Positions 1 through 28,203 of a stretch of DNA of 64,000 bases are shown piece after piece. A program made the translations under genes and the position numbers. Position 1 is the first letter of the stretch; every line of letters begins with the position of its first letter. The notes beneath the pieces were generated by a model. It searched no databases, was not told the origin of the DNA, and saw only the letters and a program-made list of their open reading frames with translations. The DNA is from an uncultured Phycisphaerales bacterium (GTDB lineage Bacteria > Planctomycetota > Phycisphaerae > Tepidisphaerales > Tepidisphaeraceae): positions 3,008,001 through 3,072,000 of the forward strand of contig CAVWLP010000002.1 of assembly GCA_963755915.1 (NCBI GenBank). The letters run 5' to 3'.

Positions 1-207
1 CAACTGGGGATCAGTAAAATCTTTGCGGCTGAACTTCGAGCGACCCTTCAGACAGGCCAATCCCAATGCATAAGCCGCATTCAGTACCTTCCGTGGCGAT
101 TTGCAGGTCTCCATCCTGCATGATGTAACAACTCAACGCCGAATGCGCAAATTTCTGCAAGGTCGCTTCGCGTCGAGGATTGAGACAGAGCAAGAGGCAC
201 ACAAAAA

Positions 208-1587: not shown

Positions 1588-1596
1588 ATATGTCCG

Positions 1597-1629
1597 GGAA
1601 CGCCCAACGCGCCGCGGTGGGGCATTTCC
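1597..1629. repeat. REP-like palindrome, intergenic variant
   Basis: GGAACGCCCAACGCGCCGCGGTGGGGCATTTCC, similar to the copies at 3271 and 5055. Confidence 0.55.
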
Positions 1630-1657
1630 ACTATTCTAAAAGACAAAAAAAACGCCC

Positions 1658-7438: not shown

Positions 7439-7440
7439 CT

Positions 7441-7498
7441 ATTTCGAATTTCGGGTTTCGAATTTGATTCGAATTTCGAGTTTCGTCATTCGAATTTC
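7441..7498. repeat. TTCGAA-rich short repeat tract between convergent genes
   Basis: ATTTCGAATTTCGGGTTTCGAATTTGATTCGAATTTCGAGTTTCGTCATTCGAATTTC; overlaps the hrpB stop. Confidence 0.7.
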
Positions 7499-9967
7499 CT
7501 CCTGGCCTTCCCCTTTGCCTCCGGCTTCGCCCGAAGCGGATCATCCGGCCAGGAATGTTTCGGATACCTCACCCTCAGGTCCTTCCGCACCTGAAAATAC
7601 GTCGTTTTCCAGAAGCTCCCCAGATCATCCGTGATCTGCACCGGCCGAAAATTGGGTCCAAGCAAATGCAAAACCACCGCTACTCTCCCCGCCGCGATTC
7701 TCGGCGTATCCTGCCAGGAGAAAACCTCCTGCAAACGCACCGCCAATATCGGCGCCTGCTCCCCGCGATACTGCAGCCGAATCGCGGCTCCCGCTCGGAA
7801 CCTCCAGCGCCTCCGGTGCTTCGCGGCGAAGAACCTGATCCAGCGGATATTGAAGCCGCGCCTCCAGCGCCGCCCCAGCCCGGATCGGCGAACCTCCTCC
7901 ACGCTCCGCCTTCCCGCGCAAAGTTCGCTCAGAATCTCCCCAAGCTGCACCTCGTCGAACGTCGGCCAGGCATGCTCCGGCATCGCCCGCCGAAGCAGCG
8001 CCACGCGACTCAAAAAATTCCCCGCCTCTTCATCCGTGCCAAAAAATTCCCCCGCCCGCGCCCAAGCGCCTCAGCCAGCTTTTTCCCCGCTTTGGCCGGA
8101 TCTACCGCCGCATCCATTTCTTCGGACAGAACCAGGTCGCGATACCGCACGATCCGCCGCCCGACCACCGCCTCGCGCTGAGGATCAAACTCCGCAACCT
8201 GCTCCCGAACGATCGACTGCGGGAACATTTCCACCAGCCACCCCGACTCGATCGCACTCGCGATCCTAACCGCCGCCTCCCGGCTCGACATCCGCGGATC
8301 GCTCCGCGCATCCAGCGCAGAAAAAATTCCCCCTGCCGCACCACCGATTCCCGATCCAGCCTCACACCCCCTCCGCCCACCATCACCGCCGCCGCTGGGT
8401 CCCGCTGTCTCCGCCGGCAAACCCGATCCGGATAGCCGAAAAGCGGCAGCTTCAAAAGCGTCTCCCGATCCGGCGATCTTCGCGCCGATCCCCCCAATCT
8501 CCGCCCAATTCGCAGCAACTCCGCGCTTACCCGCCGTACATCGGGGTCCTGCGAACCATCCATCATCACCAACAAATCGCTATCCCCGATCGTCGCCGGC
8601 GCACCCTTCTTCGCCTGCCTCACCTCCTCCGAAAGTATCGCCGCCAGAATCGCCCCCTCCTCCACGCACCCTCGATCCGCAGCCTCGCACAGCATCCTTC
8701 CGATCCGCGGATGCACCGGCAATTTCATCAGCCGCCCGCCCAATTCCGTCACGCCTCGCGAATCAACCGCCCCCAGCATCTCCAGCAAATTCCTCGCATG
8801 TTCCAGCGCCTCCGGCGGGGGGGCTTCAAACCACCCGAACTCCCCCGGATCGGATTTCCCCCAGGCATGCAGATCCAGAACCGCCCCGCACAGATCGACG
8901 CGCTGGATCTCGGGCAATTCAAAATCCTCCAGCCCCGCCTGCTCTTTCGCCGACCACAGCCGCAAACATTTTCCCGGCGCGGTCCGGCCCGCGCGCCCGC
9001 TCGCTGCGTGGCCGAAGCCTTGCTGAGCCGCTTCAACTCCAGCCGATCCAATCCCCGCCGCACGTCAAACATCGGTACCCGCGCCAATCCCGCGTCGATC
9101 ACCCAGCGCACCCCTTCAATGGTCAGCGAAGTCTCCGCGATGTTCGTCGCCAGAATGATCTTCCGCCGGCTCGATGGCTCAAGCGCCGCCATCTGCTCCT
9201 CAGCCGGCAAACTCCCATACAGCGGCAGCACCGCCAAATCGTGCCGCTGCCCAATACCAGCCAGCTCGCGCTGCGCCCCCGAATCTCCTGCGCCCCCGGC
9301 AGAAAAACCAGCACATCCCCCGCGCTTTCCTTCCGGCCCACAACCTCTTCCACCGCATCCCTCACGCGCTCCACAGCCGAAACTCCGCCACCCGCCCGAT
9401 ACTCTATCTCCACCCCAAACGTCCTCCCCGGCACATCGATAATCGGGCAATCCCCCAGAAACTTCGCCGCCGGCCCCGCGTCCATCGTCGCCGACATCAC
9501 CACGATCAGCAGGTCCGGGCGCACCGTCTGTCGCATCTCCCGCAGCATGGCGATCGCCAGATCCACATGCAGCGACCGCTCATGAAACTCGTCCAGAATC
9601 ACCGCACCCACGCCCTCGAGAAACGGATCGTCCAACATCTGCCGGGTGAGCACCCCCTCCGTCAAAACCCGCAGCCGGGTCTGAGGAGTGATTCGCCTTT
9701 CAAAGCGTATCTGATACCCCACTTCCCGCCCCAGGTTCCAGCCGTTTTCCTGCGCGATTCGCGCCGCCGCCGCCCGCGCCGCAACCCGCCGCGGCTGAAG
9801 CATCACGATATTCGGATGCTCGCGGGAAAGAATCCCGTCCCGCAAAATCCCCGGCGGCACCCGCGTCGTCTTCCCCGCCCCCGGCTCAGCCACCACCACC
9901 ACCGATTTCGCTCCCGCAGCGCATCGACAATCTCCCCCAGATACCCATCAATCGGCAGCGGAATCAT
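7486..9967 (-). CDS. hrpB: ATP-dependent RNA helicase HrpB (several frameshifts)
   Basis: LPID start, AEPGAGKTT, DEFHER, MSAT, ATNIAETSLTI, and HrpB C-terminus PVQITDDLGSFWKTTY...RYPKHSWP across ORF pieces. Confidence 0.92.
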
Positions 9968-10021
9968 CTTCGCATCTTGACCGAAACGCGGCCCGATTTC
10001 ACCGCCCGCTGCGCTAGCAGC

Positions 10022-11204: not shown

Positions 11205-11405
11205 TCAGCGCTGTACAGCGCCTTTGACGAGCTCTTTGGCAAGCTCATCCCCGAGCGAGCTTAGATCGAACTGGATCAGCCCTTTTCGCACCAGGGAAAG
11301 GAGGACAGGCTCCGGCGTCCGGATCGAATTGCGTCTTCGATCCGCCAGTTCAAGGAGGAACTTGCGCTCTTCGTCGGTGATGTTGATCCCGGTCGCGATT
11401 CGCAT
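11205..11405 (-). CDS. Small hypothetical protein, possibly winged-helix-like
   Basis: 66-aa ORF with GAGG upstream of the ATG; LVRKGLI...LSSLGDELA. Confidence 0.45.
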   Translation of the reverse strand: MRIATGINITDEERKFLLELADRRRNSIRTPEPVLLSLVRKGLIQFDLSSLGDELAKELVKGAVQR

Positions 11406-11465
11406 GGCCTCATAATAAATCGGTCCGATTTGTGCTGTGCTTTATTTCCAAAAACCGCCCCCCGC

Positions 11466-11494
11466 TTGAAGGGCGGCGGGTGTCGCGATACCAT
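11466..11494 (+). promoter_or_regulatory. Original host tRNA-Val promoter, displaced to the left junction
   Basis: TTGAAG-17 nt-TACCAT, 11 nt upstream of the tRNA 5' fragment at 11506. Confidence 0.7.
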
Positions 11495-11504
11495 CAAAAA
11501 GCCT

Positions 11505-11527
11505 CGGGCGATTAGCTCAGTTGGCCA
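11505..11527 (+). repeat. attL core of element 1 (tRNA-Val 5' fragment)
   Basis: CGGGCGATTAGCTCAGTTGGCCA, identical to 23040-23062. Confidence 0.95.
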
Positions 11528-11714
11528 ACACACGGCAAATGTAAGCGGGGGCGACTCCAAGCAGTTACAATCCACTGATGTTGCGAGCGCAGCATATTTG
11601 ACAGCAGTTGGTCCGGATCAGGGACTCGCAATCGTCTGCGAACGCTGGACAGCCCTACCGGCGATCTTGCGAAAAGTAATCGTGGCAATGGTCGAGGCAG
11701 CCGTGGAAAAGTAA
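11505..11714 (+). other. Orphan reading frame that becomes the integrase C-terminus in the excised circle
   Basis: RAISSVGQ-HTANV...GLAIVCERWTALPAILRKVIVAMVEAAVEK*, in the same phase across the core as int 21669. Confidence 0.7.
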
Positions 11715-11736
11715 CAGCACATTGCAGTCCTATCGG

Positions 11737-12057
11737 TCAGGGAGATAGTTTAGCCGTGCTCTTTCCGGCGAGCTCGACACCGGCCTTCGAAAGGATTTCT
11801 GCTACTTCACGGGCGTTCTTCAAAATGACTCTGTTCTCATCAGTATCGGTAAGCCCAAAATTCTCAGGCTTCGCCCCCACAGCAACTAAACAGTGCTTTA
11901 ATAGCACCTGTTCCTGATGTCCTACACCGAAGATAGCCAATTCGTTGCTCTTTTGCGAAAACTGGATTTGACCGCCGTAATAGTTCAATACCTCGATCGC
12001 AGTATTCACCGAGATTTTGCCACCACGCAACTTGCTCTTCCCGCCCCAGCCTGACAA
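11737..12057 (-). CDS. Hypothetical protein (low-GC cargo)
   Basis: 106-aa ORF, TTG start preceded by GAGG. Confidence 0.55.
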   Translation of the reverse strand: MSGWGGKSKLRGGKISVNTAIEVLNYYGGQIQFSQKSNELAIFGVGHQEQVLLKHCLVAVGAKPENFGLTDTDENRVILKNAREVAEILSKAGVELAGKSTAKLSP

Positions 12058-12394
12058 TCAATCCTCAAATGCAATCAATATACCGTGCTTAGCAACTATA
12101 AAACTACACGTGGTGAATGTAAAGACAAATCGATTTCCACAAATAAGTTAAATACCGGCCCAAATCAGTAATCCGCGCTTGCGTCAAAGATTTGAAGTAT
12201 TCTGGTCACTAGGCTTGGGTGGCCAAATACCTTCGATACTTCCCGTGTCTTGGTGACCACGGTGCGTTAGAAGGAGTTTGAGGCTGTGTGCCTCTCATCT
12301 GGCAAGTATGTGAGACGCCGCCGTCGCCAGCGTTTTGGGCGCGCTCGGCGGCGGAGTTTCGATAGACCTTTTAAGTATAAGAAAGAGGAACCAC

Positions 12395-12560
12395 TTAACA
12401 CTTTGATTTATATAAACCGCGACGGACAGTTTTTGTCCGAAAACGGACAATTTGTGGTTTTCGACGGCCAAAAAACCGTTGCAATATTGGCCAAATAGTG
12501 ACAGGGTGCTGGTAGTTCCTGACCAAAAAAGCGGGGGTAAGATGGCCGAAAACGGACAAA
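12395..12560. other. Putative plasmid replication origin (AT-rich stretch plus short repeats)
   Basis: TTTGATTTATATAAA, palindrome CGGACAGTTTTTGTCCG, and repeated CCGAAAACGGACAA / GGCCAAA just upstream of rep. Confidence 0.45.
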
Positions 12561-13162
12561 CATCGCGAGCGGAAACGAATCAGGTCGCCACGAAACGTGG
12601 GCTTCCGGTTTACCGCGTCAATCCCAGCATCCCGCCGTCGAATGGCTTGGCAACGCGACAGAAGCGTTTTGAAGTGCCAGGCGGCAAAGCTGCCGTCATC
12701 GTGGACAACGGCACCGGCGAAATCAAAGGCATCGGCGGCATGGGTTTCTGGTGGCAAGAGGAAGTGGATGCCAGCCGGTTCGTGAAACTGTTTCTGGATG
12801 GCATCAAGCAAGCCTGCGGGCTTTCCAAATCCGGCATGGCGGTCTTTGAATTGGTGTACCACCAAATCAGGGAAAATCCCGGCAATGACAAGATCGAACT
12901 GAGCCAATACATGGCACAGGATCGCGGCCTGAATGAACGAACCTTCCGCCGGGGCCTGCGGGAATTGCTCGAAAAGGAATTCTTGTACCGCAGCACCAGC
13001 GACGGCGTTTTCTTCATCAACATCCGGTTCATGTTCAACGGCGACCGGCTCGCGTTCGTGCGGACGTACCATTTGAAAGGTGCGAGCCGCCAACAGGAAT
13101 TGCCGCTTGGCGATGCCCCCGCGTTGCCCGGTCCAACCGTGCGCGAGCCGACGGGCGACTGA
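12542..13162 (+). CDS. Plasmid replication protein, RepL-like
   Basis: EEVDASRFVKLF...TFRRGLRELLEKEFL...FFINIRFMFNGDR pattern typical of RepL-type HTH initiators. Confidence 0.75.
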   Translation: MAENGQTSRAETNQVATKRGLPVYRVNPSIPPSNGLATRQKRFEVPGGKAAVIVDNGTGEIKGIGGMGFWWQEEVDASRFVKLFLDGIKQACGLSKSGMAVFELVYHQIRENPGNDKIELSQYMAQDRGLNERTFRRGLRELLEKEFLYRSTSDGVFFINIRFMFNGDRLAFVRTYHLKGASRQQELPLGDAPALPGPTVREPTGD

Positions 13163-13206
13163 ACGCTACGTCGTCGCAATTGATTTGCGCGTTACAATTC
13201 CACCCG

Positions 13207-13781
13207 ATGAAACGTTTCCGTCGAGGGCTATTCAACGGGGTGGCCGGGATCTCGCTGGTCCTTTCTCTCGCCGGGGCGGCATATGGGCACGCAGTTACAG
13301 TTACGCCGAAGACCTCATCTATTACGGACACTCCGGGGGCGTCGCCATGCACGACGCGAAAGGCCGACTCGCGTTCGTATTCGAAAATGTGATGTCGATG
13401 AGCCCGCATTTTGAGTATTACTCTTCGACGCCCGTTCGCGGACTCGATTACGCGGACCCCCGGAGGACCCCTACGCTGTGGAACCGTCTGGGCTTCTACA
13501 TCGTTCGATTCACCAGAGCGCGCGATATCCAGAAGATGACTCCTCCACCGGGCATGAGTTGGCCGCCGGTGGTTCGGTACACCGACGTCGTCGTCCCCTT
13601 CTGGCTCGTGCTTCTGGTGCTGGCATTGCTGCCTTTCTGGAACTTCGTGCTGCCTATTCTCCGGGGCGCCCGCCTCCAGCCGGGCTATTGCGCGAAATGC
13701 GGCTACGATCTTCGCGCCACGCCCGACCGTTGCCCAGAGTGCGGGACAATCCCGCCGAAAAAGGAAATCATTTCAAGCTAA
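13207..13781 (+). CDS. Membrane protein with C-terminal zinc ribbon (frameshift near 13275)
   Basis: MKRFRRGLFNGVAGISLVLSL N-terminus, TM helix VPFWLVLLVLALLPFW, CAKCGYDLRATPDRCPECG. Confidence 0.7.
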
Positions 13782-13819
13782 ACGAATCGCCGCAATTGCG
13801 GAAAATCGGAAAATCGCAT

Positions 13820-14053
13820 TTACGACGGCGTTCCGCCGGGCGGGAATCGTTTTTCCAGCAAGTCGCGGACGACATCCGCCATGATGAGGTTTTCAATCGC
13901 ACACTGGCTCTTGATTCGCTTATGCAGGCCCAGCGGCACGTCGATGGTAAGCCGCTTCATTGGCTGGCCCGCATTCTTGTCGTTAATCCATTCATCCGGC
14001 GATAGTCGTGCGGGCGATCCGGCGGGTTTGGAGCGAAAGGCAACTTTCTTCAT
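13820..14053 (-). CDS. ParG-like ribbon-helix-helix partition protein
   Basis: 77 aa, KRLTIDVPLGLHKRIKSQCA...MADVVRDLLE; overlaps the parA stop. Confidence 0.8.
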   Translation of the reverse strand: MKKVAFRSKPAGSPARLSPDEWINDKNAGQPMKRLTIDVPLGLHKRIKSQCAIENLIMADVVRDLLEKRFPPGGTPS

Positions 14054-14679
14054 GCCCCAAACTCCAAAACTTCGTTTACGAGCGCGGTTAACTCATCCCC
14101 TGCCTGGCTGTCGGGTGATGTCTCGAAAACGCTCTGGCCATGCCCTGCCGACTCGGCAAATGCCACTCGCTGGCAGATTGCGGATTTCAACACCGGCACC
14201 GGGTATTCAGCCAACGCGTCCACCACGTCGCGGCCCAACGCCGTATTTACGATTTTACGATTAATTACAAATGCCGATTTCAGGCCGGGCTTGAATACCA
14301 TCGCCTCCTGCAACAGGTCCACGATTTCCTTCGCGGCCCACACGTCGTAAGGCGACGGCTGCACAGGAATCAATACAACATCGCTGGCCATGATGGCCGA
14401 CCGGGCGACTTCGTACACCCGTGGCGGACCATCGATCAGAACATGCTCATAGCCCTGGGCCAACGCGGGCAATTCCTTGTGGATGGATGACCGGGGCAAT
14501 CCAGCCACGGGAAACAGCGGATCGCTATTTCGTGACGCCGCCCAATCGAGTGCCGAACCTTGCGGGTCGGCATCGACCAGCAACACCTTTTTCTTGCGTC
14601 GGGCCAGTGCATCGGCGATGTGAACGGCCAGCGTCGTTTTGCCGACGCCGCCCTTCTGATTCAGTAGTCCGATGATCAT
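14050..14679 (-). CDS. parA: ParA (ParF-type, type Ib) partition ATPase
   Basis: MIIGLLNQKGGVGKTT, DADPQGS, IDGPP, PVQPSPYD. Confidence 0.93.
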   Translation of the reverse strand: MIIGLLNQKGGVGKTTLAVHIADALARRKKKVLLVDADPQGSALDWAASRNSDPLFPVAGLPRSSIHKELPALAQGYEHVLIDGPPRVYEVARSAIMASDVVLIPVQPSPYDVWAAKEIVDLLQEAMVFKPGLKSAFVINRKIVNTALGRDVVDALAEYPVPVLKSAICQRVAFAESAGHGQSVFETSPDSQAGDELTALVNEVLEFGA

Positions 14680-14689
14680 ATTTTCACCG

Positions 14690-14781
14690 TGAAATTCGCG
14701 ATTGGGCGGAATTGCGATTTCACGGTTATCACGAATTGCGGAAGTGCGCAAATACAGAATTGCAGATTTACGATTTACAGG
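14690..14781. promoter_or_regulatory. Putative centromere/operator repeats upstream of parA
   Basis: GAATTGC occurs three times and GATTTAC twice; related CAATTGCGGAAAATCGGAAAATCG lies downstream of parG (13790-13818). Confidence 0.45.
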
Positions 14782-15036
14782 AGTTTCCCGGGGAAATTCC
14801 TCCTTAGCAGTGCTAAGGGAAGATGTCTGTGGGTACTCAAGAATTTTCCACTCATTATGTCTAAACGGGGCCATGGGTTCCGAAGGGCATCTCGAATCGG
14901 TGCGAATCCGCCACAAATCGGTTGCCGACACATGAAATAATCCGCTCTTTCAAGCCAATAGATGGTAGGTGGCTGGCGTGCATCGGCACACCTCTGGTTT
15001 AACGATTTGTAAAGCAATCTTGGGGTAAACTGGCAG

Positions 15037-17673
15037 ATGCTTCGCATCATTCAAAGCAATTCCGCTGCCGGGGCCATGAGCTATTACAGCACGGCGGACT
15101 ATTACAGCGAGGGCCAAGAGCTACTCGGCCAATGGCGCGGGCAGGGTGCCGAACGGCTTGGCCTGACCGGCGGCATCGACAAGGCGGCGTGGGACGCCCT
15201 GTGCGATAACCGCGACCCGGCAACGGGGCTGCCTCTTACGGCCCGCCGCAATCAGGATCGTACCGTCGGCTATGATTTCAATTTCCACGTCCCCAAGAGC
15301 GTGTCTGTGCTCTACGGTCTGACACGGGATGATCGCATCCTCGATGCATTCCAAGCGTCCGTCGATGAGACGATGCGGGATATCGAGCGCGATATGAAAA
15401 CCCGCGTGCGGGTGAACGGTAAGAACGAAGAACGCACGACCGGCAATATGGGCTGGGGCGAGTTCACGCATTTCACGTCGCGGCCCGTGGACGGCGTACC
15501 TGATCCCCACCTCCACGCCCATTGCTTCGTTTTCAATGCGACGTTCGACGAAAGCGAAGATCGTTGGAAGGCGGGTCAGTTCCGGGAACTCAAGCGTGAC
15601 GCTCCTTTCTTTGAGGCCGCGTTTCATTCTCGGTTCGCCCGGCGAATGGAGGAATTGGGCCTTGAGGTCGAGCGAACGAAAGCCGGATGGGAGTTGGCCG
15701 ATATGCCCAAATCAGTCCTCAAAACCTTTTCCCGCCGAACGGCCCAGATTGAGCAAACGGCGAAAGAGGCGGGCATTACAAATCCGGCGGATAAAGATTC
15801 CCTCGGTGCCCGGACGCGGGAAAGCAAAAAGAAGGATATGCCGTTTTCGGAACTACAGGCCGAATGGCGGTCCCGGTTGCCCGTCGAGGATCAGGACGCC
15901 ATTAACCGCGTTGCGGCAAGCATCGGTGGTCCGGCATTGCCGGAAGATCCCACGCTCGGCAAAGAGGCGGTGACGTTCGCCGCCAATCACTGGTTCGAGC
16001 GCAATTCGGTCGTACCGGAGCGAACGGTGTTGGCAAAGGCACTGAAGCACGGGGTAGGGAAGGCGAGTTTGCAATCGGTGGAGTCCGCCTTTCGGAAACA
16101 CGATCTGGTCTTCGGCGAGCGGGATGGCCGGAAATTGGTTACGTCCAATGACGTGCTGATGGAAGAATCGCGGATGCTGAAATTTGCCCGCGATGGACGG
16201 GGCACGTGTCCACGGCTATACGACGGGCCGCATTCCTTCAACGATGCCAAGCTCAACGCCGGGCAATGTCGGGCGGTTGAGCATGTGCTGAATTCCTCCG
16301 ACCGGGTCATCATCGTCAACGGCGCTGCCGGCGTCGGCAAAACCACAATGATGCGTGAAGCGGTGGCCGGTATCGAAATCGGCGGCAGCAAAGTTTTCAC
16401 CTTCGCCCCTTCTGCCGACGCCAGTCGCGGGGTGCTCGCCCAAGAGGGATTTGAGAATGCCGACACGGTTGCCCGGCTCCTCGTCGATGAGAAATTGCAG
16501 CAACAAATCAGGGATCAAGTTATCTGGATCGATGAGGCCGGTCTGATTGGAACCAAAACTATGGGCCGGGTATTCGACTTGGCCGACAAACTGGATGCCC
16601 GTGTAATCCTCTCCGGCGACCGCAGGCAACATGGATCGGTGGAACATGGTGCGGCACTGCGTTTGCTCGAAACTGAGGCCGGGTGCCTTCCCGCTGAAAT
16701 CAGGGACATTCAACGGCAAAAAGGGGAATACAAACAGGCCGTGCAATCGCTTAGCGATGGCCGCACCGAAAAGGGATTCCAGCAACTCGACCATTTGGGC
16801 TGGATTAAAGAGGTTCCCGAAGGCGAACGGTACAAGGCCCTGGCCGATGAATACGTTGCGACCGTCGCCGCCGGGAAATCAGCTCTGGTTGTCAGCCCTA
16901 CGCATTCTGAAGGCGAGCGGATTACGGGTCACATCCGCGAATCGCTCAAAGATTTGGGACGGGTGAATACGGATGAACGCGAGGTTTCGATTCTGGAAAG
17001 ATCGAACCTGACGCAAGCGGAGCGTGGCGACGCGGTGAATTACGCTCCCGGCGACGTGCTGGTGTTTCAGCAGAACGGCAAGGGATACCGCAAGGGCGAG
17101 CGAATCGTAGCCGGAGAGGGTGCGTTGCCGCTCGATCAGGCAAGCAAATTTCAGAAGTATCGCACCCGAAAGATCGCAATTGCTGAGGGTGATCTCCTCC
17201 GCGTCACGCAAAATGGGAAAACCGCCGATGGCAAGCACCGGCTCAATAACGGCGCGCAATATGTGGTGGAGGGATTCACCCGCCAAGGCGACATCCGGCT
17301 CAACAATGGGTGGACCATCGACAAAAACTTCGGGCATCTGGATTATGGGTACGTCGTCACGAGCCATGTGAGCCAGGGCAAGACGGTGGATCGCGTTTTC
17401 ATCGGGCAATCGTCCGAATCGTTCCCCGCGTCATCGCGGGAGCAATTCTACGTGTCCGTCTCGCGTGCCCGGCAGCAGGCGACGATTTACACCGATGACA
17501 AGGAATCGCTGCTCGATGCGGTGAGCCGTTCCGATGATAGGATAACGGCGACGGAATTCGTCATGGATCGGGGCTATCATGCACGCGGGATGCACATTCA
17601 GCGGATCGCGGCGATGACGCCCGCACGGGATGAACGCACGCCAACACGCGAGGGGATCGAATATGACAGATAA
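15037..17673 (+). CDS. MobF (TrwC-like) relaxase-helicase
   Basis: YYSTADYY, GYDFNFHVPKSVS, HFTSR..DPHLHAH, GAAGVGKTT, IDEAG, HVSQGKTVD. Confidence 0.95.
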   Translation: MLRIIQSNSAAGAMSYYSTADYYSEGQELLGQWRGQGAERLGLTGGIDKAAWDALCDNRDPATGLPLTARRNQDRTVGYDFNFHVPKSVSVLYGLTRDDRILDAFQASVDETMRDIERDMKTRVRVNGKNEERTTGNMGWGEFTHFTSRPVDGVPDPHLHAHCFVFNATFDESEDRWKAGQFRELKRDAPFFEAAFHSRFARRMEELGLEVERTKAGWELADMPKSVLKTFSRRTAQIEQTAKEAGITNPADKDSLGARTRESKKKDMPFSELQAEWRSRLPVEDQDAINRVAASIGGPALPEDPTLGKEAVTFAANHWFERNSVVPERTVLAKALKHGVGKASLQSVESAFRKHDLVFGERDGRKLVTSNDVLMEESRMLKFARDGRGTCPRLYDGPHSFNDAKLNAGQCRAVEHVLNSSDRVIIVNGAAGVGKTTMMREAVAGIEIGGSKVFTFAPSADASRGVLAQEGFENADTVARLLVDEKLQQQIRDQVIWIDEAGLIGTKTMGRVFDLADKLDARVILSGDRRQHGSVEHGAALRLLETEAGCLPAEIRDIQRQKGEYKQAVQSLSDGRTEKGFQQLDHLGWIKEVPEGERYKALADEYVATVAAGKSALVVSPTHSEGERITGHIRESLKDLGRVNTDEREVSILERSNLTQAERGDAVNYAPGDVLVFQQNGKGYRKGERIVAGEGALPLDQASKFQKYRTRKIAIAEGDLLRVTQNGKTADGKHRLNNGAQYVVEGFTRQGDIRLNNGWTIDKNFGHLDYGYVVTSHVSQGKTVDRVFIGQSSESFPASSREQFYVSVSRARQQATIYTDDKESLLDAVSRSDDRITATEFVMDRGYHARGMHIQRIAAMTPARDERTPTREGIEYDR

Positions 17674-18076
17674 GTTTCTGCATCATCGCCCCGGGCGTGT
17701 GCTTGACGACAGATTTGATTCGGGCCCGTCAGCGGATTCCGGCGGTGTCGATGATTTTCATTCGTTTGGCTGGCTACGCGGTATTCGCGAGCGGGCCACA
17801 ATGCTCGAGCTGCGGAAGAAATCGGGCGATGTCCTGGCCATTGGCTATAGCTGGATTGAGTGTGTGGAATTCAATCCAACCCAAGGGATTACGTTGCACG
17901 TTCATGGCGACAAGATTCACATCAAAGGCCGCAATCTGAACGCCGAAGTCCGGCCCGAAGTTCGACTGTTTCAAGGAATCGCCCGTCACCGCGTGGCATG
18001 GGTGCAGGAAGCGGACAGGCCGCGAAACCTGACGGGGGACAAGCAACTGACGATTATTGACCAAATCGCCTGGTGA
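17663..18076 (+). CDS. Hypothetical protein coupled to the relaxase
   Basis: ATG overlaps the relaxase end; GAGGGG upstream. Confidence 0.65.
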   Translation: MTDKFLHHRPGRVLDDRFDSGPSADSGGVDDFHSFGWLRGIRERATMLELRKKSGDVLAIGYSWIECVEFNPTQGITLHVHGDKIHIKGRNLNAEVRPEVRLFQGIARHRVAWVQEADRPRNLTGDKQLTIIDQIAW

Positions 18077-18160
18077 CGCTTGATCAAGCCTCAGCCAAAT
18101 CTTGTCGATGCCAATAAATGATAAGAGTTCCGCGTTCGTGGTTATCAACCGGATTTAGAA

Positions 18161-18670
18161 ATGTGGTTACCCAAGGACGAACGGCGTTTGCTTGCCGGTT
18201 ACTTCAAGATAATTGGCGAAATTGATAAGGAACGCATTTATCGCGAATCTGATCTAATTCCTCTACTGTGGTGGCGACAAAAGATTGAATCCATCAAGAC
18301 ATATCGAGAATCAGTAGGCAGGTCGGATGGTTCGGCCAGCATGGAAAATATGACGGCGTTCAAGCGCGAGGTCAAACAGCTACTCGCCGATATGGCACGG
18401 ATAAAGAGAGCCAACAAGTTGTTGGTCGCCCGGAAGATGGTGGCGATTCGACCACATGCCCACGAGCAGAATGTCATCCTAATTTCATTGACCGTTAAGG
18501 GATTCGACTTTGGAAGGCGATATGGCAATTGACTAGATTCAACGGGACTTTGGTTTGCCTATTACAAGAATCACTGGATTTGGCTAATTGTGGCTGCCGT
18601 CGCGGGCGGCATTATTCCGAAATTAATTGATCGTATCGGAGCGATTATTGCCGCCTTGCACCGACCGTAG
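18161..18670 (+). CDS. Hypothetical membrane-anchored protein with an internal TGA at 18530-18532
   Basis: 123-aa ORF; the frame stays open after TGA (LDSTGLWFAYYKNHWIWLIVAAVAGGII...) to TAG 18670. Confidence 0.5.
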
Positions 18671-19297
18671 CTAGACCCCGTGTCCATGAATGAGCCGCCG
18701 CACAGAAGTTCTCCCAATACCGAGCCGTTTGGCGATCTGGCTCTTGCTGATTCCCGAAAGAAACAGCTTGTTTGCCTCATCCGCAAGTGCTGTCACTGTC
18801 GCGGGTCTTCCGTGCGGCTTCCCGTTCTTCCTGGCCTCTGCGATTCCGGCTTTGACGCGATCCCGCAGGATGTCACGCTCGTATTGTGCAAACACTGCCA
18901 GCATCCCGGCCATTGCCTGGCCGCTCGGTGTCGTGAAATCCAACGAATCGTTCGGCGAAACAAAATTGACGCCCACTGCGTGCAATTCCTTCAATGTCGT
19001 CACAAGGTCGAGCAACGAACGGCCCCAGCGATCCAGCTTCCAGACCAGGACGATATCAATCTCCCGTCGCATTGCAGCGTGCAGCACTTCATTCCTTGCC
19101 GGACGATCTTTCGCCCCGGACCCGACTTCCTCAATCTGCATGGCGACAGTCCAGCCCCGTCGCTCGGCGTATTCCCGCATCGCCGAAATTTGCAGCGGCA
19201 ATGTCTGCTGGTCGTGGGTCGAAACACGTGCGTACAACCCGACGCGTAAACGGTCGCCTGCCCCCTGGCCAAAAACCTCCCCCCGATTTTCGGTCAT
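18671..19297 (-). CDS. Serine resolvase/invertase with C-terminal HTH
   Basis: YARVST, VWKLDRWGRS, GRP, IAKRLGIGRTSVRR. Confidence 0.93.
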   Translation of the reverse strand: MTENRGEVFGQGAGDRLRVGLYARVSTHDQQTLPLQISAMREYAERRGWTVAMQIEEVGSGAKDRPARNEVLHAAMRREIDIVLVWKLDRWGRSLLDLVTTLKELHAVGVNFVSPNDSLDFTTPSGQAMAGMLAVFAQYERDILRDRVKAGIAEARKNGKPHGRPATVTALADEANKLFLSGISKSQIAKRLGIGRTSVRRLIHGHGV

Positions 19298-19416
19298 GCC
19301 CCCTCGATAATTCAACTGCTTGCAGAAAACCCTTTACACCGGCCAAAAACTATAGTTTATGGTCAGGTCAGGACGTATCACGATTCAGCAAAAGGGACAA
19401 GAGAAATTCTCGCCGC

Positions 19417-19857
19417 ATGGAAAACCTGCTCACGATTGCACTGGAAGCCCATAACAATGATCTCAATCATCACCGCCGCTATGAAATTACCGTCGGTCGG
19501 GATTTGCTGGACGATTGGACGCTGAGCATCCGCTACGGTCGCGTCGGCGGCGGATATCAAACGCAAAAGTTTTCCGGGAAAGACAAGCATCAAATCCGTG
19601 CTATCATTCGGGAACGGTTACGGCGTAGGCGATCCGCCCCAAAACGGATTGGATGTGCATACCGGGTAACGACATTCGACGCTGTTGCGGAATTCGACAC
19701 ATCCGCATGGTTGCCGAATGATTCGATTGTCTTTCTTCCTGACCCACCATTTTCCCTGACCCCGATGGTGGACAAAATTGCTTTCAGCGGAGCGAAGCGG
19801 GGTCAAGGTGGAACCGTCGGAGAAGAGGCTCCATGTACTCATGGAGTAGCACCTTGA
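19417..19857 (+). CDS. WGR-domain protein
   Basis: RRYEITVGRDLLDDWTLSIRYGRVG. Confidence 0.75.
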   Translation: MENLLTIALEAHNNDLNHHRRYEITVGRDLLDDWTLSIRYGRVGGGYQTQKFSGKDKHQIRAIIRERLRRRRSAPKRIGCAYRVTTFDAVAEFDTSAWLPNDSIVFLPDPPFSLTPMVDKIAFSGAKRGQGGTVGEEAPCTHGVAP

Positions 19858-19969
19858 GGCCGATTCGTGGAGCGTACAATGTCGGAATTGGGGGCAGGGA
19901 AAGCTTGCCCTAGAAATCGCTCCTCCCTCAGAAATAATTGCTCTACGCTTTTAATCAACTTCTGCTGGA

Positions 19970-20422
19970 TCACTTACGCGGGTCGAACGGAACCGGCCTA
20001 CCACATTTTTCACAGAAGCGTGATTCGGGGTGAAAATTGAATGGAAACGCGTGAACCATGGTGGAGTTTTCAGTCAGGACCGCCATGACTCCACTGCATG
20101 TTGATGCAAACACACCATTGTTGTACTGCATTCCTGTTGTGCTACCCGCGAAAAGGATAAGGTTCTTGCGTCCCCAGTCGTCAATTTCAAGACATCCAGA
20201 CGCCATTGCTGACACCATGTGATGTTGATAGCTGTTCCAAGTCGAATTAAGGAATACCGAGTTGATCGAATAAATCTCAGTTGGGACGGTATGTTTTACA
20301 TATTTTTCCAACTGGTAGTCGTAGGGATATTTGCCTCCTGCATTGGCCTCAAGCGTTGAAGAATCGACGGGCACTATGAGACCTGAATTCCGTGCGCATT
20401 CATGGCAATAATATTTAGACAT
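19970..20422 (-). CDS. Hypothetical protein with terminal CxxC pairs (low-GC cargo)
   Basis: 150 aa, CHEC at the N-terminus and CEKC at the C-terminus. Confidence 0.7.
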   Translation of the reverse strand: MSKYYCHECARNSGLIVPVDSSTLEANAGGKYPYDYQLEKYVKHTVPTEIYSINSVFLNSTWNSYQHHMVSAMASGCLEIDDWGRKNLILFAGSTTGMQYNNGVFASTCSGVMAVLTENSTMVHAFPFNFHPESRFCEKCGRPVPFDPRK

Positions 20423-20520
20423 GGCGAAGGTGGTTTTGTAACACGCCGCCGCTAACAGGCTGCCCGTGCAGTTATCCGAGCACCTAACTCTATCGGCTGG
20501 ACCGCAAAAATAGCAAATAC

Positions 20521-20859
20521 TTACGGCATTTCTTCCCGAAGTTTGTTTTGCCAGTCCTGGGCGGTATGGAAGACGTGCAGGATATGGACCTCTTTATCGT
20601 CGAAATTGTAGACGGCCACATGGCCATGCCCGCTGGTCCTCCGCCTGATGACGACATAACGCAAATCGGGCCGTGTGCTGACTTTCTTGCCCCTGGCATA
20701 GCTGCTGGCCAGACCGGCGATGCTTTCCTTTAGATACCGGAGATAAGCATCGGCATGGGGGACGCCGTAACGTCCAGCGTTCCATCGCCAAACATCGTCG
20801 AGTTCATCAATCGCCGTCGGGGAGCGAATGACCGTCAGCGGGGATTGTTCCGAAGCCAT
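20521..20859 (-). CDS. Type II toxin, RelE/ParE family
   Basis: SPTAIDELDDVWRW...HVAVY...VHILHVFHTAQDW. Confidence 0.8.
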   Translation of the reverse strand: MASEQSPLTVIRSPTAIDELDDVWRWNAGRYGVPHADAYLRYLKESIAGLASSYARGKKVSTRPDLRYVVIRRRTSGHGHVAVYNFDDKEVHILHVFHTAQDWQNKLREEMP

Positions 20860-21113
20860 TCCGCCCTACGTTTCGCAAGTTCCGCGTCCGCTTGGTCTGC
20901 CGTATAGAAATTCCCGGCTTTGATTTCCGCTTCCGCCTTGTCAATGTGGGCAAGCCGTTCGGGCGTGAAAAGATGGTCGAGGTTTTCGGTTCCCTCGTGA
21001 AGATCATAGCTCAAAACGTCGGCGATGTATTCGTCAACGGTCGAGAACCCGGCTTCCGTCGCCCGGCGTTGGACCTCTTTGTAAAGATGATCGTTGAGTT
21101 GGACTTGTTGCAT
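20835..21113 (-). CDS. Putative antitoxin (RHH/ParD-like)
   Basis: Acidic small ORF upstream of and overlapping the toxin; EAGFSTVDEYIADVL. Confidence 0.7.
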   Translation of the reverse strand: MQQVQLNDHLYKEVQRRATEAGFSTVDEYIADVLSYDLHEGTENLDHLFTPERLAHIDKAEAEIKAGNFYTADQADAELAKRRAEWLRNNPR

Positions 21114-21417
21114 AGGCAATCTTTCTGAACGGCTGTCCGACATTATAACGGCATTTGAGGCCGATTGTCATTGAGAAATTGGCCCCTGGCATTGCAGGAT
21201 TCGACCCGAACAGGCACACGCCGCGTTGCGGCGGCCGGAGATTTGCCGGTCTATTCAGGTCGCTTGAAGATTTTTGGTGAAAGATTTCGGCCCTTTGACG
21301 CAAATAGTCTTAGGGTGTGTTCTGCGGCCACGGGCAGCGTCCGACCCCATTGTACAGTCAATGGAAATAAGGCCGCGCGCTCCCGCGCGGTCGGTGTCGA
21401 ACAACGGAGATTTCACG

Positions 21418-21648
21418 ATGCAGATTCAAACAATCCAAACGCAAACGGAAAATCCTCCCGCTTTGCTGACTCTGGCGATGATCCGGCGATATTATGTTCC
21501 GATTGCTTCCCGCACCCTGTTCCGGCTGATTTCGTCGGGGCGATTCCCCAAGGCGGATATCGGCATCGGCGGGAAGCTGCGGCTATGGAAGCGTGAAACG
21601 GTTGAAGCGTGGATCGCGTCCAACGCGGTGCGGGTGGGCGTAGAATAG
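21418..21648 (+). CDS. Excisionase/AlpA-like HTH protein
   Basis: ASRTLFRLISSGRFPK...GGKLRLWKRETVEAWI; directly upstream of int. Confidence 0.8.
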   Translation: MQIQTIQTQTENPPALLTLAMIRRYYVPIASRTLFRLISSGRFPKADIGIGGKLRLWKRETVEAWIASNAVRVGVE

Positions 21649-21668
21649 CGTGAAAGCGATGGTGCTTT

Positions 21669-23306
21669 ATGGCCAGTGTTTTCAAACGTGGCGGCAAGAA
21701 AAACCGCGAAGGAAAGTACGTCGCATCGTTCTTCGATGAGAATGGGAAGCGTGTCAGCCGAAGCACGGGCACGACGGATTACGATGCCGCTTGCCAGGTT
21801 GCGGCACGATGGGACACCGACGTTGCCCTGCGGCGCCATGGCGTGATTGACGCGACGCAAGCCCGCATCGCCGATCAGAACCGGCAGCATATCAGGGAGC
21901 ATGTCGCCGATTATCTGGCCCATTGCAGGCATGTCGGGCAGGACAAAGCCCACATTGCCATCAAAACATCGCAGTTGGCCAAGCTCGTGGCTGGAATCAA
22001 CGCAACCCGGCTGTCCGATCTTGAGCCGAACCGGGTAGAGCGCTATCTGGCCAATCTGGTGACAGCGGGCAAATCACACAGAACGCACAACCAAAATCGG
22101 GCCACGGCAGTCGCGTTCATGCAATGGTGTTTCGAGCAAGGGCGAGTAGCGTCCAACTTGCTGAAAATCGTCCCGACGCTCAATGAAGCCAAGGATCGAA
22201 GACGTGTGCGGCGGGCGTTGAGCGAAGATGAATTGTCCCGACTGCTCGCGGTATCCGATGAACGTCGGCCCTACTACCTGTTTGCCTATTACACCGGCTT
22301 GCGGGTCAAGGCCGTCAAAGCCGCTATGTGGGGCGACGTGGATTTCGACAGTGCTTTGATTCGCGTAAAAGTCGGCAACGCCAAGGGCAAAAAGGATGAC
22401 ATTTATCAGCCTTTGCATCCCCGATTGCTGCAAGAATTGCGGCGGATGAGAAGTGAAATGCCGTTTGCATCCCAGGCTGATCCGATTTTTCCCGGTGTGC
22501 CGCTGGTCAAGACGTTTCACCGGGATTGCCAGCGGGCCGGAATCGAGCGATATGACGCGGACGGCAGGCAACTGGACCGTCATGCCCTCCGCACCACGCT
22601 CGGCACTCACCTGGCCCGTGCGGGCGTTCTGCCGCAACTGGCGATGAAGGTGATGGGCCACAACGACGTGCAGACCACGATGAAGCATTACACGGCGTTA
22701 CGTCTGGCGGACACGGCCAAGGCGATGAACGCTCTGCCGTCCATCGAACCGAACGCCAATGCGAATGCCGCGGCCCTGCGGGCGACGGGAACGGACCCGG
22801 CTAATGTGCCGTCAAATTTGTCGGGTTTCGGCGCACAGCATGTTCGACAGCAGTTGTGCGGCTCGGATACGCAAAATCTGACACCCACTGTCGCTGATAG
22901 CGAAACGACAAAATCGTCCGCACAAAAAACTGTGGTGTTCATTTCGCCCCAGAAAAACAGGGGTTTTGGCGATATTCAGCAGCGTGCGACAGCCATCGAC
23001 TTGAAGGAAATCGCCGCTCGCGATACCATCGAAAAAGTACGGGCGATTAGCTCAGTTGGCCAGAGCGTACGGATCACACCCGTGAGGTCACAGGTTCGAG
23101 CCCTGTATCGCCCATTTCCACTTCTTCGCACTGCGTCGCATTATCTCGCACAGAGTCGCAAGGCCCCGCAAGCGTGGGACTTACGGAATCTTCGCCGGAA
23201 CTGGGTGCGATATCCTGCGACGCCTTGCGAGCAGATGCTGCACCGGATTCTGCACCGCCTGTCTCAGACGCTGCTTCCGCCGCCTTTGCAAAATGCTCAT
23301 CGGTGA
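21669..23306 (+). CDS. int: Tyrosine integrase; frame reads through attR and tRNA-Val
   Basis: YTGLR, HALR, MGH and HY catalytic motifs; no stop before the att core at 23040. Confidence 0.93.
   Translation: MASVFKRGGKKNREGKYVASFFDENGKRVSRSTGTTDYDAACQVAARWDTDVALRRHGVIDATQARIADQNRQHIREHVADYLAHCRHVGQDKAHIAIKTSQLAKLVAGINATRLSDLEPNRVERYLANLVTAGKSHRTHNQNRATAVAFMQWCFEQGRVASNLLKIVPTLNEAKDRRRVRRALSEDELSRLLAVSDERRPYYLFAYYTGLRVKAVKAAMWGDVDFDSALIRVKVGNAKGKKDDIYQPLHPRLLQELRRMRSEMPFASQADPIFPGVPLVKTFHRDCQRAGIERYDADGRQLDRHALRTTLGTHLARAGVLPQLAMKVMGHNDVQTTMKHYTALRLADTAKAMNALPSIEPNANANAAALRATGTDPANVPSNLSGFGAQHVRQQLCGSDTQNLTPTVADSETTKSSAQKTVVFISPQKNRGFGDIQQRATAIDLKEIAARDTIEKVRAISSVGQSVRITPVRSQVRALYRPFPLLRTASHYLAQSRKAPQAWDLRNLRRNWVRYPATPCEQMLHRILHRLSQTLLPPPLQNAHR
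23001..23029 (+). promoter_or_regulatory. Element-encoded replacement promoter for tRNA-Val, inside int
   Basis: TTGAAG-17 nt-TACCAT; same boxes and spacing as 11466-11494. Confidence 0.75.
23041..23114 (+). tRNA. tRNA-Val(CAC)
   Basis: Acceptor GGGCGAT/ATCGCCC+A, D-arm GCTC/GAGC, anticodon arm TACGG-ATCACAC-CCGTG, T-arm ACAGG-TTCGAGC-CCTGT; CCA not encoded. Confidence 0.96.
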
Positions 23307-23500
23307 TCTGCAGGTAGTGATCGCGCGCTACCACCTCGCTGTTGCCAATCCAGGCACACACCACGTGAGCAGGCCAGCTTTCCGTCAGTTCCGTCTGGCG
23401 TGAAGACCGAAGATTCTGAAAAAGCTTTGGTTACGGCTCGATCCCTGCCTTGGCAAGAATCCAGAGAAATTGTGTGCGAATGTTCATCTGTTCCGACGTT
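23074..23500 (-). pseudogene. C-terminal remnant of a second tyrosine integrase, reading into the tRNA antisense strand
   Basis: ILAKAGIEP*PKLFQNLRSSRQTELTESWPAHVVCAWIGNSEVVARDHY...MGDTGLEPVTSRV*; in-frame TAA, N-terminus missing. Confidence 0.8.
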
Positions 23501-26584: not shown

Positions 26585-28203
26585 TCAGTCGTTGCCATTG
26601 GCCTTTCCCATGTCCTCCATCTTCCGCATCACCTCATCGAGGTTGAAGCTCGCGGGTTTTTGACGCGGCGGGAACTCCTTGAAACTTGCCAGCCACTTGG
26701 CGGCGAAGGTCTGCATCGGCACCTGCACGAACGCCCGGCGGAACATCCAGTCGGCGTAATAGATGCTCTCGGGGCCACGCTCGAAGGGGTCGGTGCGCAG
26801 GTTGTAGAGTTTCGGCAGACGCAGCCTGGTGAACTGGCCCTGCCACACGCCCACGGGCGCTTCGGGGGACATGTGCGTGTTCTGCTCCATGAACGTGGTC
26901 TTCCACATCTCGTAGCGAATGGCCATCAGGTCGCCGTCGTCGGACCAATAGATGAATTCCTTGCGCGGCGACTCTTTCACATCGCCCTTCAGGAACGGCA
27001 TGAGGTTGTAGCCGTCGAGGTGAACCTTGAACGTCTTGCCGTCGGCGTCGTAGCCTTTCATCACTTTGGCGACGAGATCGGGCTCGCCAGCGGCGGCGGC
27101 GAACGTGGGGATGAGGTCTTCGTGGGCGCAGATGTCGTTGATGACAGTGTTGGGCTTGATCACGCCGGGCCAGCGGATGAGCGTGGGCACGCGGAACCCA
27201 CCTTCCCAGTTGGTCGCCTTCTCGCCTCGGAAAGGCGTGGTGCCGCCGTCGGGCCAGCTGATCAGCTCCGCGCCATTGTCGGAGGTGTAGACGACGATGG
27301 TGTTGTCGGCGATGCCGAGGTCGTCGAGTTCCTTAAGAAGCTGGCCGACATGCGCATCGTGCTCGACCATGCCGTCGGGATAGACGCCCAACCCCGTCTT
27401 GCCCTCGCTCTCTTTCTTGAGATGCGTGATGATGTGCATGCGGGTGGAGTTATAGTAGCAGAAGAACGGCTTGTTGGCCTTGGCCTGCTTGTCGATCCAC
27501 CCGACGGCGGCATCAGTGAACTCATCGTCGATGGTTTTCATTCGCTCGACGGTGAGCGGGCCGGTGTTTTCGATCTTCTGCTTGCCGACGCGGCCCCACT
27601 GGGGATCGACGGTGGGGTCGTCGGTATCGGTGGCCCAGGTGTGCATGACGCCGCGCGGGCCGAACCTTTGTTTGAATGCAGGGTTCTTCGGGTAGTCGGG
27701 GTTTTCGGGCTCTTCCTCGGCGTTGAGGTGGTAGAGGTTGCCGAAGAATTCGTCGAACCCGTGGACGGTGGGGAGGAACTTGTTGAGGTCGCCCAGGTGG
27801 TTCTTGCCGAATTGGCCGGTGGCGTAGCCGAGGTTCTTCATGAAGTCGGCGACGGACGGGTCCTTGGGATCCAGGCCGATGTCCGCGCCCGGCAGGCCGA
27901 CCTTGGTCAGCCCGGTGCGAATCGGGGACTGCCCCGTGACGAACGCCGCGCGACCGGCGGTGCAAGATTGCTGGGCATACCAGTCGGTGAAGCGGCACCT
28001 TCATTGGCGATGCGATCAATGTTGGGCGTACGATAGCCCATCATCCCGCTGTTGTAGCAACTGGGATTAAACCAACCGATGTCATCGCCCATGATGACGA
28101 GGATGTTGGGCTTGGCCTGCTGGCGCGCGCCACTGGCCGGGCGCAAAAGCATGATAAAGACTGCCCCAAATATGGCGGCGATCAACGGTTTAGGCGTACG
28201 CAT
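26585..28203 (-). CDS. Arylsulfatase (frameshift near 27990)
   Basis: KPNILVIMGDDIG, SCTAGRAAF, GYATGQFGKNHLG, SDNG, WEGGFRVP. Confidence 0.93.

Follow-up and report, generated by a model that had tools for sequence, protein, structure and literature searches.

An integrase gene overlapping its target tRNA-Val, and probably split by integration, in a Phycisphaerales mobilizable element

A tRNA gene within an integrase reading frame

The window analyzed here is a 64,000-nucleotide (nt) stretch from the genome of an uncultured Phycisphaerales bacterium (assembly GCA_963755915.1, contig CAVWLP010000002.1, positions 3,008,001 to 3,072,000 of the forward strand); the nearest database records also name a host from Phycisphaerales, Planctomycetota. 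Its central feature is int, an open reading frame (ORF) of 545 amino acids (aa) at 21669-23306 on the + strand, which encodes a tyrosine integrase and contains an intact tRNA-Val(CAC) gene on the shared strand. We consider it probable that this tRNA marks the right attachment junction (attR) of an 11.5-kb element, and that the core of the attachment site of the circular form (attP) lies inside int, with the catalytic body on one side and a conserved C-terminal tail on the other. The features that bear on this reading are as follows.

11466-11494, + strand: predicted native tRNA-Val promoter, displaced by the insertion (TTGAAG 11466-11471, 17-nt spacer, TACCAT 11489-11494; sequence reading, alignment A1)
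11505-11527, + strand: left direct repeat (attL core), 1 nt plus tRNA-Val positions 1-22, a displaced 5' fragment (100% over 1-22)
11528-23062, no strand: integrative mobilizable element, 11.5 kb (Pfam, direct repeats, empty site in genome G301)
11529-11714, + strand: detached C-terminal int tail, 61 codons plus TAA, ending ...GLAIVCERWTALPAILRKVIVAMVEAAVEK (frame arithmetic; homologous tails)
21669-23039, + strand: integrase body, 457 codons, catalytic domain intact (Pfam, alignment A2)
23001-23029, + strand: putative replacement tRNA promoter within int (TTGAAG 23001-23006, 17-nt spacer, TACCAT 23024-23029; sequence reading, alignment A1)
23040-23062, + strand: right direct repeat (attR core), encoding R-A-I-S-S-V-G-(Q) in the int frame (repeat comparison)
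23041-23114, + strand: intact tRNA-Val(CAC), the regenerated target gene (ARAGORN; Rfam RF00005)
23063-23306, + strand: junction-specific read-through tail of integrated int, tRNA body plus 64 codons (homologue comparison)

An earlier note on this DNA, made from the letters alone, had described a tRNA embedded in-sense within the last 89 codons of int. Both parts of that description stand: ARAGORN, Rfam (RF00005, 62.1 bits against a gathering score of 29), and the ORF coordinates agree on one strand, and 457 whole codons lie ahead of the tRNA, so that with the stop counted it falls within the last 89. Pfam places a Phage_integrase domain (PF00589) at residues 184-344 of the product (E=1.5e-19), which identifies it as a tyrosine recombinase. 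The catalytic residues R212, H305, R308, and Y341 are invariant in alignment A2, with H331 nearly so, and the linker motifs ATGTD, RQQLCG, and KNRGFG of the body are conserved as well. Past the tRNA, the int sequence is not conserved; it differs or is absent in the close homologues P0001 (521 aa), P0002 (475 aa), and P0003 (494 aa).

The in-sense open frame that reaches a tRNA 5' end has a median length of 49 codons across 84 tRNA and transfer-messenger RNA (tmRNA) genes of this genome. It exceeds 400 codons at two of the 84: the tRNA-Val(CAC) of the window (463 codons), which is present as a single copy in this assembly (81% complete), and a tRNA-Cys (469 codons), whose frame also adjoins an integrase-like ORF. 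Because such frames are confined to these two genes, the overlap of int and tRNA is not due to chance. The tRNA-Cys(GCA) locus lies outside the window (C2:2213319-2214801; also L032) and is a second sense-type case, in which the frame ends at a D-loop TAA (tRNA position +21); neither the tail nor the promoter pattern described below was detected there.

Boundaries of the element and its target site

The element is bounded by a 23-nt direct repeat (11505-11527 and 23040-23062) made up of a single nt and tRNA positions 1-22, in agreement with the earlier expectation that a circle would carry only 22 nt of the tRNA gene. The repeat corresponds to the front of the tRNA, with the element on the upstream side of the gene, which places the recombination in the 5' part of the tRNA gene, a rare orientation; the right-hand limit of identity falls in the D-loop. 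The displaced tRNA fragment upstream and the position of int beside the regenerated tRNA likewise correspond to the 5' (reversed) orientation.

An empty site is present in a genome of the same genus (G301), in which an aminopeptidase gene is followed, after ~77 nt, by tRNA-Val(CAC), with no match to int; in the genome studied here, the aminopeptidase gene adjoins the left side of the element. This evidence for an unoccupied target comes from G301 as one genome, with two others (G372 and G382) being less clear. Assembled contigs of one public sequencing run (X1) cross both attL (11371-11927, 0 differences) and the int-tRNA boundary (22141-23114, 1 difference); public contigs are short, and this run is possibly the source sample and thus not independent.

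The split gene and its C-terminal tail

Codon 465 of int starts at 23061, and ORF 11430-11714, at the opposite end of the element, has a codon start at the matching repeat base, 11526. By this frame arithmetic, the int frame of a circle would pass from 23062 to 11528 and reach a TAA stop at 11712-11714, giving a 526-codon gene; the att core thus falls within the int ORF, and the frame goes on into the other attP arm. This TAA, 62 codons past the repeat, would give the circular form a stop codon of its own.

The same arrangement recurs in related elements. When 16 sense-type loci (those with int and the tRNA on one strand) were searched upstream for a second copy of their own tRNA's initial 22 nt, four yielded one within the available DNA (the window, L069, G387, and G277). 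The frame across the repeat is open for 61-80 codons in all four, and all four tails end in ...LTAVG...DPDLxxhIxxWxxLPxxhRxxIhAhV, with invariant L, A, A, D, L, W, L, R, and I. These tails are 31-39% identical to that of the window, and the corresponding Int bodies 41-70% identical. A fifth sense-type tail is found elsewhere in this genome (C2:3529191), directly after a displaced tRNA-Val(GAC) fragment (C2:3529165). Elements in the antisense orientation show a comparable split: in G017 and G027, at tRNA-Ala, int ends ...GLEPTTSSLQSW followed by HSTS and a stop within the antisense tRNA, and the far-end tRNA copy reads in one frame through ...LERPTSSLQSW, then QP...DPRLAVLLEAWPDLPEPIRRAVVAMVEA and a stop; in the C3 element of this genome, an antisense tRNA-Met peptide gives way to the tail at the anticodon loop. 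The split architecture is therefore present in five sense-type and three classical antisense-type elements. As judged from these sequences, an intact int gene can exist only in the circular form, and integration would split it.

Four tails were combined into a profile, and a search of 1.84 billion cluster representatives with it returned 7016 proteins at E<=1e-3, of which 43 reach E<=1e-10. The best 150 matches are 53-223 aa in length and carry the tail at their C-terminal end. Among 16 such proteins that were fetched, 15 open with a tRNA-derived peptide, one of them with a sense RAVSSVG and the rest with antisense T-arm (GLEP/GFEP/GESNP-type) or sense T-arm readings; the T-arm readings were checked against the minus-strand ORF of the window over 23074-23114 and against antisense elements (G017, G027, and C3). 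The remaining protein (P0164) consists of four tandem tail motifs without a tRNA peptide. Because they open with tRNA-derived peptides, these apparent small proteins are best read as the far halves of split int genes. Uninterrupted genes also exist: body, tRNA-derived linker, and tail are joined in one ORF in 7 of the 120 listed Int homologues, all of which were searched with a local tail profile (P0046, P0086, P0087, P0090, P0099, P0114, and P0116). The tail was detected in 42 of 301 sampled Planctomycetota genomes (E<=1e-5), and in 30 of the 190 that are of high quality. None of eight tail-bearing small proteins matched a family in Pfam or in NCBIfam, and a tblastn search with a tail-bearing protein found no match in phage records or PLSDB plasmids. 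A reading of the tail as noncoding was overturned by the comparison of multiple elements together with the profile search.

Two further tail-holding frames, in G007 (468 aa) and G611 (481 aa), were considered as uninterrupted integrases and rejected, one being an orphan tail in an antisense frame and the other a different protein. The ORFs outside the integrase family that carry the tail are L094 (G611:C40; 481 aa) and C2:3575386-3575490 on the minus strand (114 aa, with a hydrophobic N-terminus).

The tail might instead be a small gene in its own right, sited at the element's left end, expressed from the displaced native tRNA promoter and not part of Int, though we regard this as highly improbable. 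Gene callers do annotate stand-alone tail proteins of 53-223 aa, the native tRNA promoter is directly upstream of the tail in 5'-type elements, and the motif also closes the two non-integrase ORFs. However, 15 of the 16 fetched proteins begin in tRNA-derived sequence, which is implausible as a conserved start; the tail of the window has no in-frame ATG or GTG, its one TTG lacking an evident ribosome-binding site; the tail frame always agrees with the int frame across the core; and uninterrupted fusions with Int exist.

A putative promoter within the integrase gene

Insertion at the 5' end severs the tRNA from its own promoter. The predicted native promoter now ends 11 nt before the displaced tRNA fragment, and a copy embedded in int ends 11 nt before tRNA position +1; the two are identical in their hexamers, spacing, and distance to the tRNA, and differ in spacer sequence. 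The embedded copy falls within the last ~15 int codons before the tRNA, where it is dual-coded with the residues D-L...D-T-I. Residues encoded by the hexamers (D-L ... D-T/S/N-I/M) are the sole conserved ones in an otherwise variable stretch of the protein.

Alignment A1, which comprises 10 tRNA-Val upstream regions both native and int-embedded, shows the TTG and TA..AT positions to be invariant. Scored as TTGNNN-N16-18-TANNNT-N8-14 ending at the tRNA, the promoter pattern occurs at 7 of 8 int-embedded Val sites (locus L012 being the exception), at 6 of 7 other tRNA-Val upstream regions, and at 1 of 5 non-Val sense-type sites, against a background of 0.16% among 20,000 random sites in this genome. 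Since the hexamers are conserved at fixed spacing, those embedded in int may act as a promoter.

Distribution and orientation across the integrase family

Relatives of int were examined at 32 loci, of which 29 come from 401 genomes of the class, two from named metagenome-assembled genomes (MAGs), and one is the window itself. A tRNA or tmRNA gene lies at the int 3' end in 29 of the 32, in the sense orientation in 11 and in the antisense (classical) orientation in 18. The int stop falls inside or beyond the tRNA or tmRNA at 26 of these 29 loci; the other three are frame-broken. Because attP lies inside int, the overlap with a tRNA gene is a family-wide consequence and is not peculiar to the window.

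Additional loci from metagenomes (15 examined of 37) support the same picture: all 12 with a complete 3' end stop at position +20 of a sense tRNA-Val. The translated tRNA start, R-A-I/V-S/G-S/A-V-G, is found in 17 of the 18 closest fetched homologues; 13 of these stop there at the D-loop TAG, three read through the tRNA, and one (P0019) has a different tail. The remaining homologue, P0012, reads the tRNA start in another frame. Sense orientation is accordingly common in the family, at 11 of 29 loci and, by ad hoc peptide patterns, in at least 48 of 120 homologues. In a tree of 28 rows, which leaves out the frame-broken L006 and three loci without a tRNA, the clade of the window (with L005, G277, G129, and G387) is monophyletic (support 100/99), and the other sense-type loci are scattered over the tree.

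Proposed mechanism and evidence against it

The explanation that we favor builds on the observed anatomy of the locus, its recurrence across the family, the conserved tail and promoter hexamers, and the uninterrupted genes. An attP core made of tRNA-Val positions 1-22, extending to the D-loop, would lie between the integrase body and a tail of ~60 aa. Recombination at the 5' part of the chromosomal tRNA-Val(CAC) would shift the native promoter and 5' fragment to the left end of the element, and the promoter and 5' 22 nt carried in the last int codons would substitute for them, keeping the tRNA intact and expressed. The same event would split int: the body would be fused to the tRNA and the DNA downstream of it, yielding a junk read-through tail, and the true tail-coding segment would be stranded at the element's left end, at a distance of 11.5 kb. 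Full-length Int would then be made only from the circle. By analogy with IntP/IntX of phage Mx8 and with the archaeal suicidal integrases (see below), loss of the tail may alter Int activity and so record the integration state.

Several results weigh against this explanation. A word-based homologue search with the window tail alone (the "longer" lengths) returned no match; BLASTP of this tail against that of P0019 gave E=6.2, and the P0019 tail was also missed by the local tail profile. The tail motif closes the two non-integrase ORFs noted above (in G611, 481 aa, and at C2:3575386), so it is not exclusive to Int; it looks like a portable module. A tandem array elsewhere in this genome includes an attP-like junction at which int (3537400-3538821) lacks a tail and terminates 7 codons beyond the core. 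Integrated int bodies are well conserved, with catalytic residues intact, which suggests that the truncated enzyme is probably still in use and argues against simple inactivation by the split. A consensus scanner missed the int-embedded promoter, which matched at 8 of 12 positions (threshold 9). Neither an 11527-23063 nor a 23062-11528 joint is among the 15 contig joints listed (of 18; Logan contigs), and this copy of the element is consequently only putatively mobile. Finally, the assembly comprises 3 contigs and has an estimated contamination of 8%.

Some of these points would fit a neutral by-product, in which the att core overlaps the int 3' end for compactness and both the read-through and the loss of the tail are without effect. 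Besides the tandem-array junction with only 7 codons past its core and the good conservation of integrated bodies, the read-through stretch past the core differs between close relatives in both length and sequence, and the excisionase-like gene could set directionality alone. Yet the tail is conserved in sequence and in frame while the Int bodies are 41-70% identical, and it is found in thousands of representatives and fused to Int in uninterrupted genes. This conservation, spread, and fusion imply selection on a translated tail that can be joined to Int only in the circle, and the neutral account seems to us rather unlikely.

RNase P and tmRNA

It is established that RNase P processes mRNA-tRNA co-transcripts and that tmRNA rescues stop-less mRNAs, and the earlier note had combined the two into a possible off-switch: RNase P would cut xis-int read-through transcripts at 23040/23041, the stop codon would be lost, tmRNA would tag Int, and the circle would escape. 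The premise concerning the message is sound: with no in-frame stop upstream of 23041, cleavage at 23040/23041 would deprive the int message of a stop; the D-loop TAG of relatives (tRNA position +20) is also downstream of the RNase P site. The proposal is further consistent with a circle that retains just 22 nt of the tRNA and supplies a stop of its own, with the presence in the genome of RNase P RNA (294 bits) and tmRNA (138 bits), and with the absence of a convincing terminator between int and the tRNA (3 terminator-like sites versus 2.7 expected).

Other observations argue against it. The tRNA has its own putative promoter, which would make it independent of xis-int read-through. At 18 of the 29 loci the tRNA is antisense and RNase P irrelevant, yet the layout in which int spans attP is kept; since this antisense majority shares the int-over-tRNA layout, the layout is not maintained for RNase P. 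Ribosomes translating 88 more codons through the tRNA should also oppose its folding. A literature search found no relevant paper linking RNase P, non-stop messages, tmRNA, and integrase, and no integrase regulated by RNase P cleavage and tmRNA rescue. Loss of the tail is, moreover, a different state-dependent change and is directly supported. RNA folding of 22961-23194 was uninformative (z=0.23; the acceptor stem was kept, and the D and T arms were not reproduced), and in the one RNA run the contigs matched relatives only.

We therefore consider the off-switch, as an evolved mechanism, improbable. That RNase P cuts some read-through transcripts is in itself plausible, with the chances for and against roughly balanced. 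The RNase P/tmRNA route could be a possible add-on in sense-type members of the family, unneeded to explain the overlap; judged by the comparisons above, loss of the tail would be the better-supported state switch of the two.

Comparison with known systems

The closest precedents are integrases whose genes contain their own attachment site. In phage Mx8, attP lies within int, and integration gives the gene a new 3' end, so that the enzyme is modified and not destroyed, according to passages of one account (PMC6070905); a second, likewise taken in excerpt, describes the Mx8 and SSV integrases as extending across attP (PMC4383910). As far as these excerpts go, the present integrase resembles Mx8 IntP/IntX in the location of attP and in that only the C-terminal part is exchanged, the catalytic domain remaining whole. 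There is, in contrast, no detectable sequence relationship: when 50,697 phage records were searched by tblastn with the Int body, 46 weak matches resulted, none under a Myxococcus organism name, with identities of <=26.3% among the 15 listed. Mx8 is also a phage, whereas this element is a mobilizable island, and here the crossover falls in the 5' part of the tRNA, so that a sense tRNA and promoter sit in the ORF.

The suicidal integrases of archaeal SSV, pTN3, and pT26-2 are described, in the excerpts consulted, as having an att site translated within Int and a gene that integration splits to opposite ends of the element (PMC7253208; PMC8371274). To that extent they share with this family a recombination site in the integrase ORF and a gene cut in two. 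In the archaeal case, however, a short N-terminal part is split from the catalytic C-terminal part, which is thought to be inactivating; here the body stays intact, its catalytic domain lying upstream of the core in its entirety, and the loss is limited to a tail of ~60 aa. The Pfam families differ as well, with PF16795 (Phage_integr_3) in the archaeal suicidal integrases and PF00589 here; PF16795 is not among the matches of the window Int at E<=0.01, and homologue P0019 matches it only at E=0.16. A passage of PMC8371274 states that recombinases disrupting the gene that encodes them are confined to archaea, to which the present family is, in a qualified sense, a bacterial counter-example.

Recombination at the 5' part of tRNA genes is much rarer than at the 3' part, according to an excerpt of PMC6563490. 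As in other elements of the 5'-part type, some of them archaeal too, the 5' fragment here has been moved upstream, and it falls to the element to rebuild the front of the gene. An element recombining with the 5' part of a tRNA gene was reportedly described by Zhao & Williams (2002, J Bacteriol 184:859). In the sense clades of the present family, unlike Mx8 and SSV, a complete tRNA, with its 5' end and putative promoter, forms part of the int coding sequence. A literature search that combined Planctomycetes, integrase, attP, and tRNA gene returned no paper. These comparisons point to a principle known from Mx8 and the archaeal integrases, with a cut point that appears to differ in this widespread bacterial family.

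Gene content of the element and neighboring features

The remaining annotated genes of the element, and an adjoining integrase remnant, are listed below.

12452-13162, + strand: RepL-like gene (Pfam, E=3.2e-4)
14050-14931, - strand: ParA (Pfam)
15037-17673, + strand: TrwC relaxase/helicase (Pfam, E=1.1e-70)
18671-19315, - strand: resolvase (Pfam)
18994-19857, + strand: WGR-domain ORF (Pfam)
20521-20859, - strand: ParE toxin (Pfam)
20835-21143, - strand: putative antitoxin, partner of ParE (listed with the Pfam-scanned element genes)
21418-21648, + strand: putative excisionase gene xis (HTH_17, PF12728; E=2e-5, 25.2 bits, just below the curated cut-off of 27)
23074-23484, - strand: 3' remnant of another tyrosine integrase, in the classical orientation, whose frame runs into the tRNA 3' end, ...AHVVCAWIGNSEVVARDHYLQ...GDTGLEPVTSRV and a stop (ORF 23074-23364 plus sequence reading)

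TrwC, Int, and the Xis-like protein provide a relaxase and an integration module without a conjugation pore, as in mobilizable elements; no type IV secretion system family was found among the 16 ORFs in the Pfam scan, in which small ORFs were only partly covered. The xis ORF ends 20 nt upstream of int. With a RepL-like gene and ParA (12452-14931), the excised form may persist as a plasmid, which would fit the uninterrupted int genes seen in metagenomes.

The remnant integrase at the 3' side of the tRNA indicates that tRNA-Val genes are flanked by elements on both sides. Its DNA (23074-23484) is 88-91% identical to DNA beside tRNA-Val(GAC) (C2:3566764) and beside a 43-nt tRNA fragment (C2:3646106). 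Upstream of that tRNA-Val(GAC), an apparent tandem array of two 5'-type elements occupies C2:3529165-3566837. It begins with a displaced promoter, 22-nt fragment, and tail (3529165-3529358), followed by an int paralogue (3537400-3538821), a shorter int (3565501-3566586), and the tRNA; the int paralogue ends at an 18-nt core plus 7 codons.

In the related MAG represented by L005, an attL-like remnant at 18189-19040 comprises a promoter, a 22-nt fragment with 2 mismatches, and a frameshifted tail ending ...YWTMLP and a stop. This remnant and the aminopeptidase gene are inverted and lie ~9 kb downstream of the int-tRNA junction, an arrangement that could be either an inversion between att sites or an assembly problem.

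Elsewhere in the window, ARAGORN predicts an 89-nt tRNA-Gly(TCC) at 27175-27263 on the minus strand, unreported by Rfam at its gathering score and possibly a pseudo-tRNA or fragment. Three tandem paralogous gene copies of ~1.7-1.8 kb, 66-89% identical and with internal repeats resembling tetratricopeptide repeats, lie at 2800-7400; positions 1-10000 show strong negative GC skew; and a perfect 24-nt tandem repeat at 43790-43964 (6 registers listed, 4 identical copies) lies in a stretch of 66% GC.

Significance

Protein, promoter, and tRNA 5' end share one stretch of DNA at this locus, which makes it a compact natural case of overlapping codes. The system also allows a direct test of whether a C-terminal tail sets recombination directionality, and of whether RNase P and tmRNA can silence a tRNA-fused gene. 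At the scale of databases, thousands of "hypothetical small proteins" with a tRNA-derived opening peptide probably represent the far halves of integrase genes, and their positions mark element ends exactly.

As a broader and tentative proposal, short of being likely, these integrases may form a large "self-splitting" family in Planctomycetota, in which the tRNA segment of the att core would be translated in frame as a linker from body to detachable tail and the integration state would be held in the Int protein itself. Loss of the tail would act as a switch of directionality or stability; in the sense clades, int would be forced to encode the tRNA promoter and 5' end, and the RNase P/tmRNA route might add a second layer of shut-off. 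Integration at tRNA 5' ends may, in addition, be far commoner in Planctomycetota than the literature suggests.

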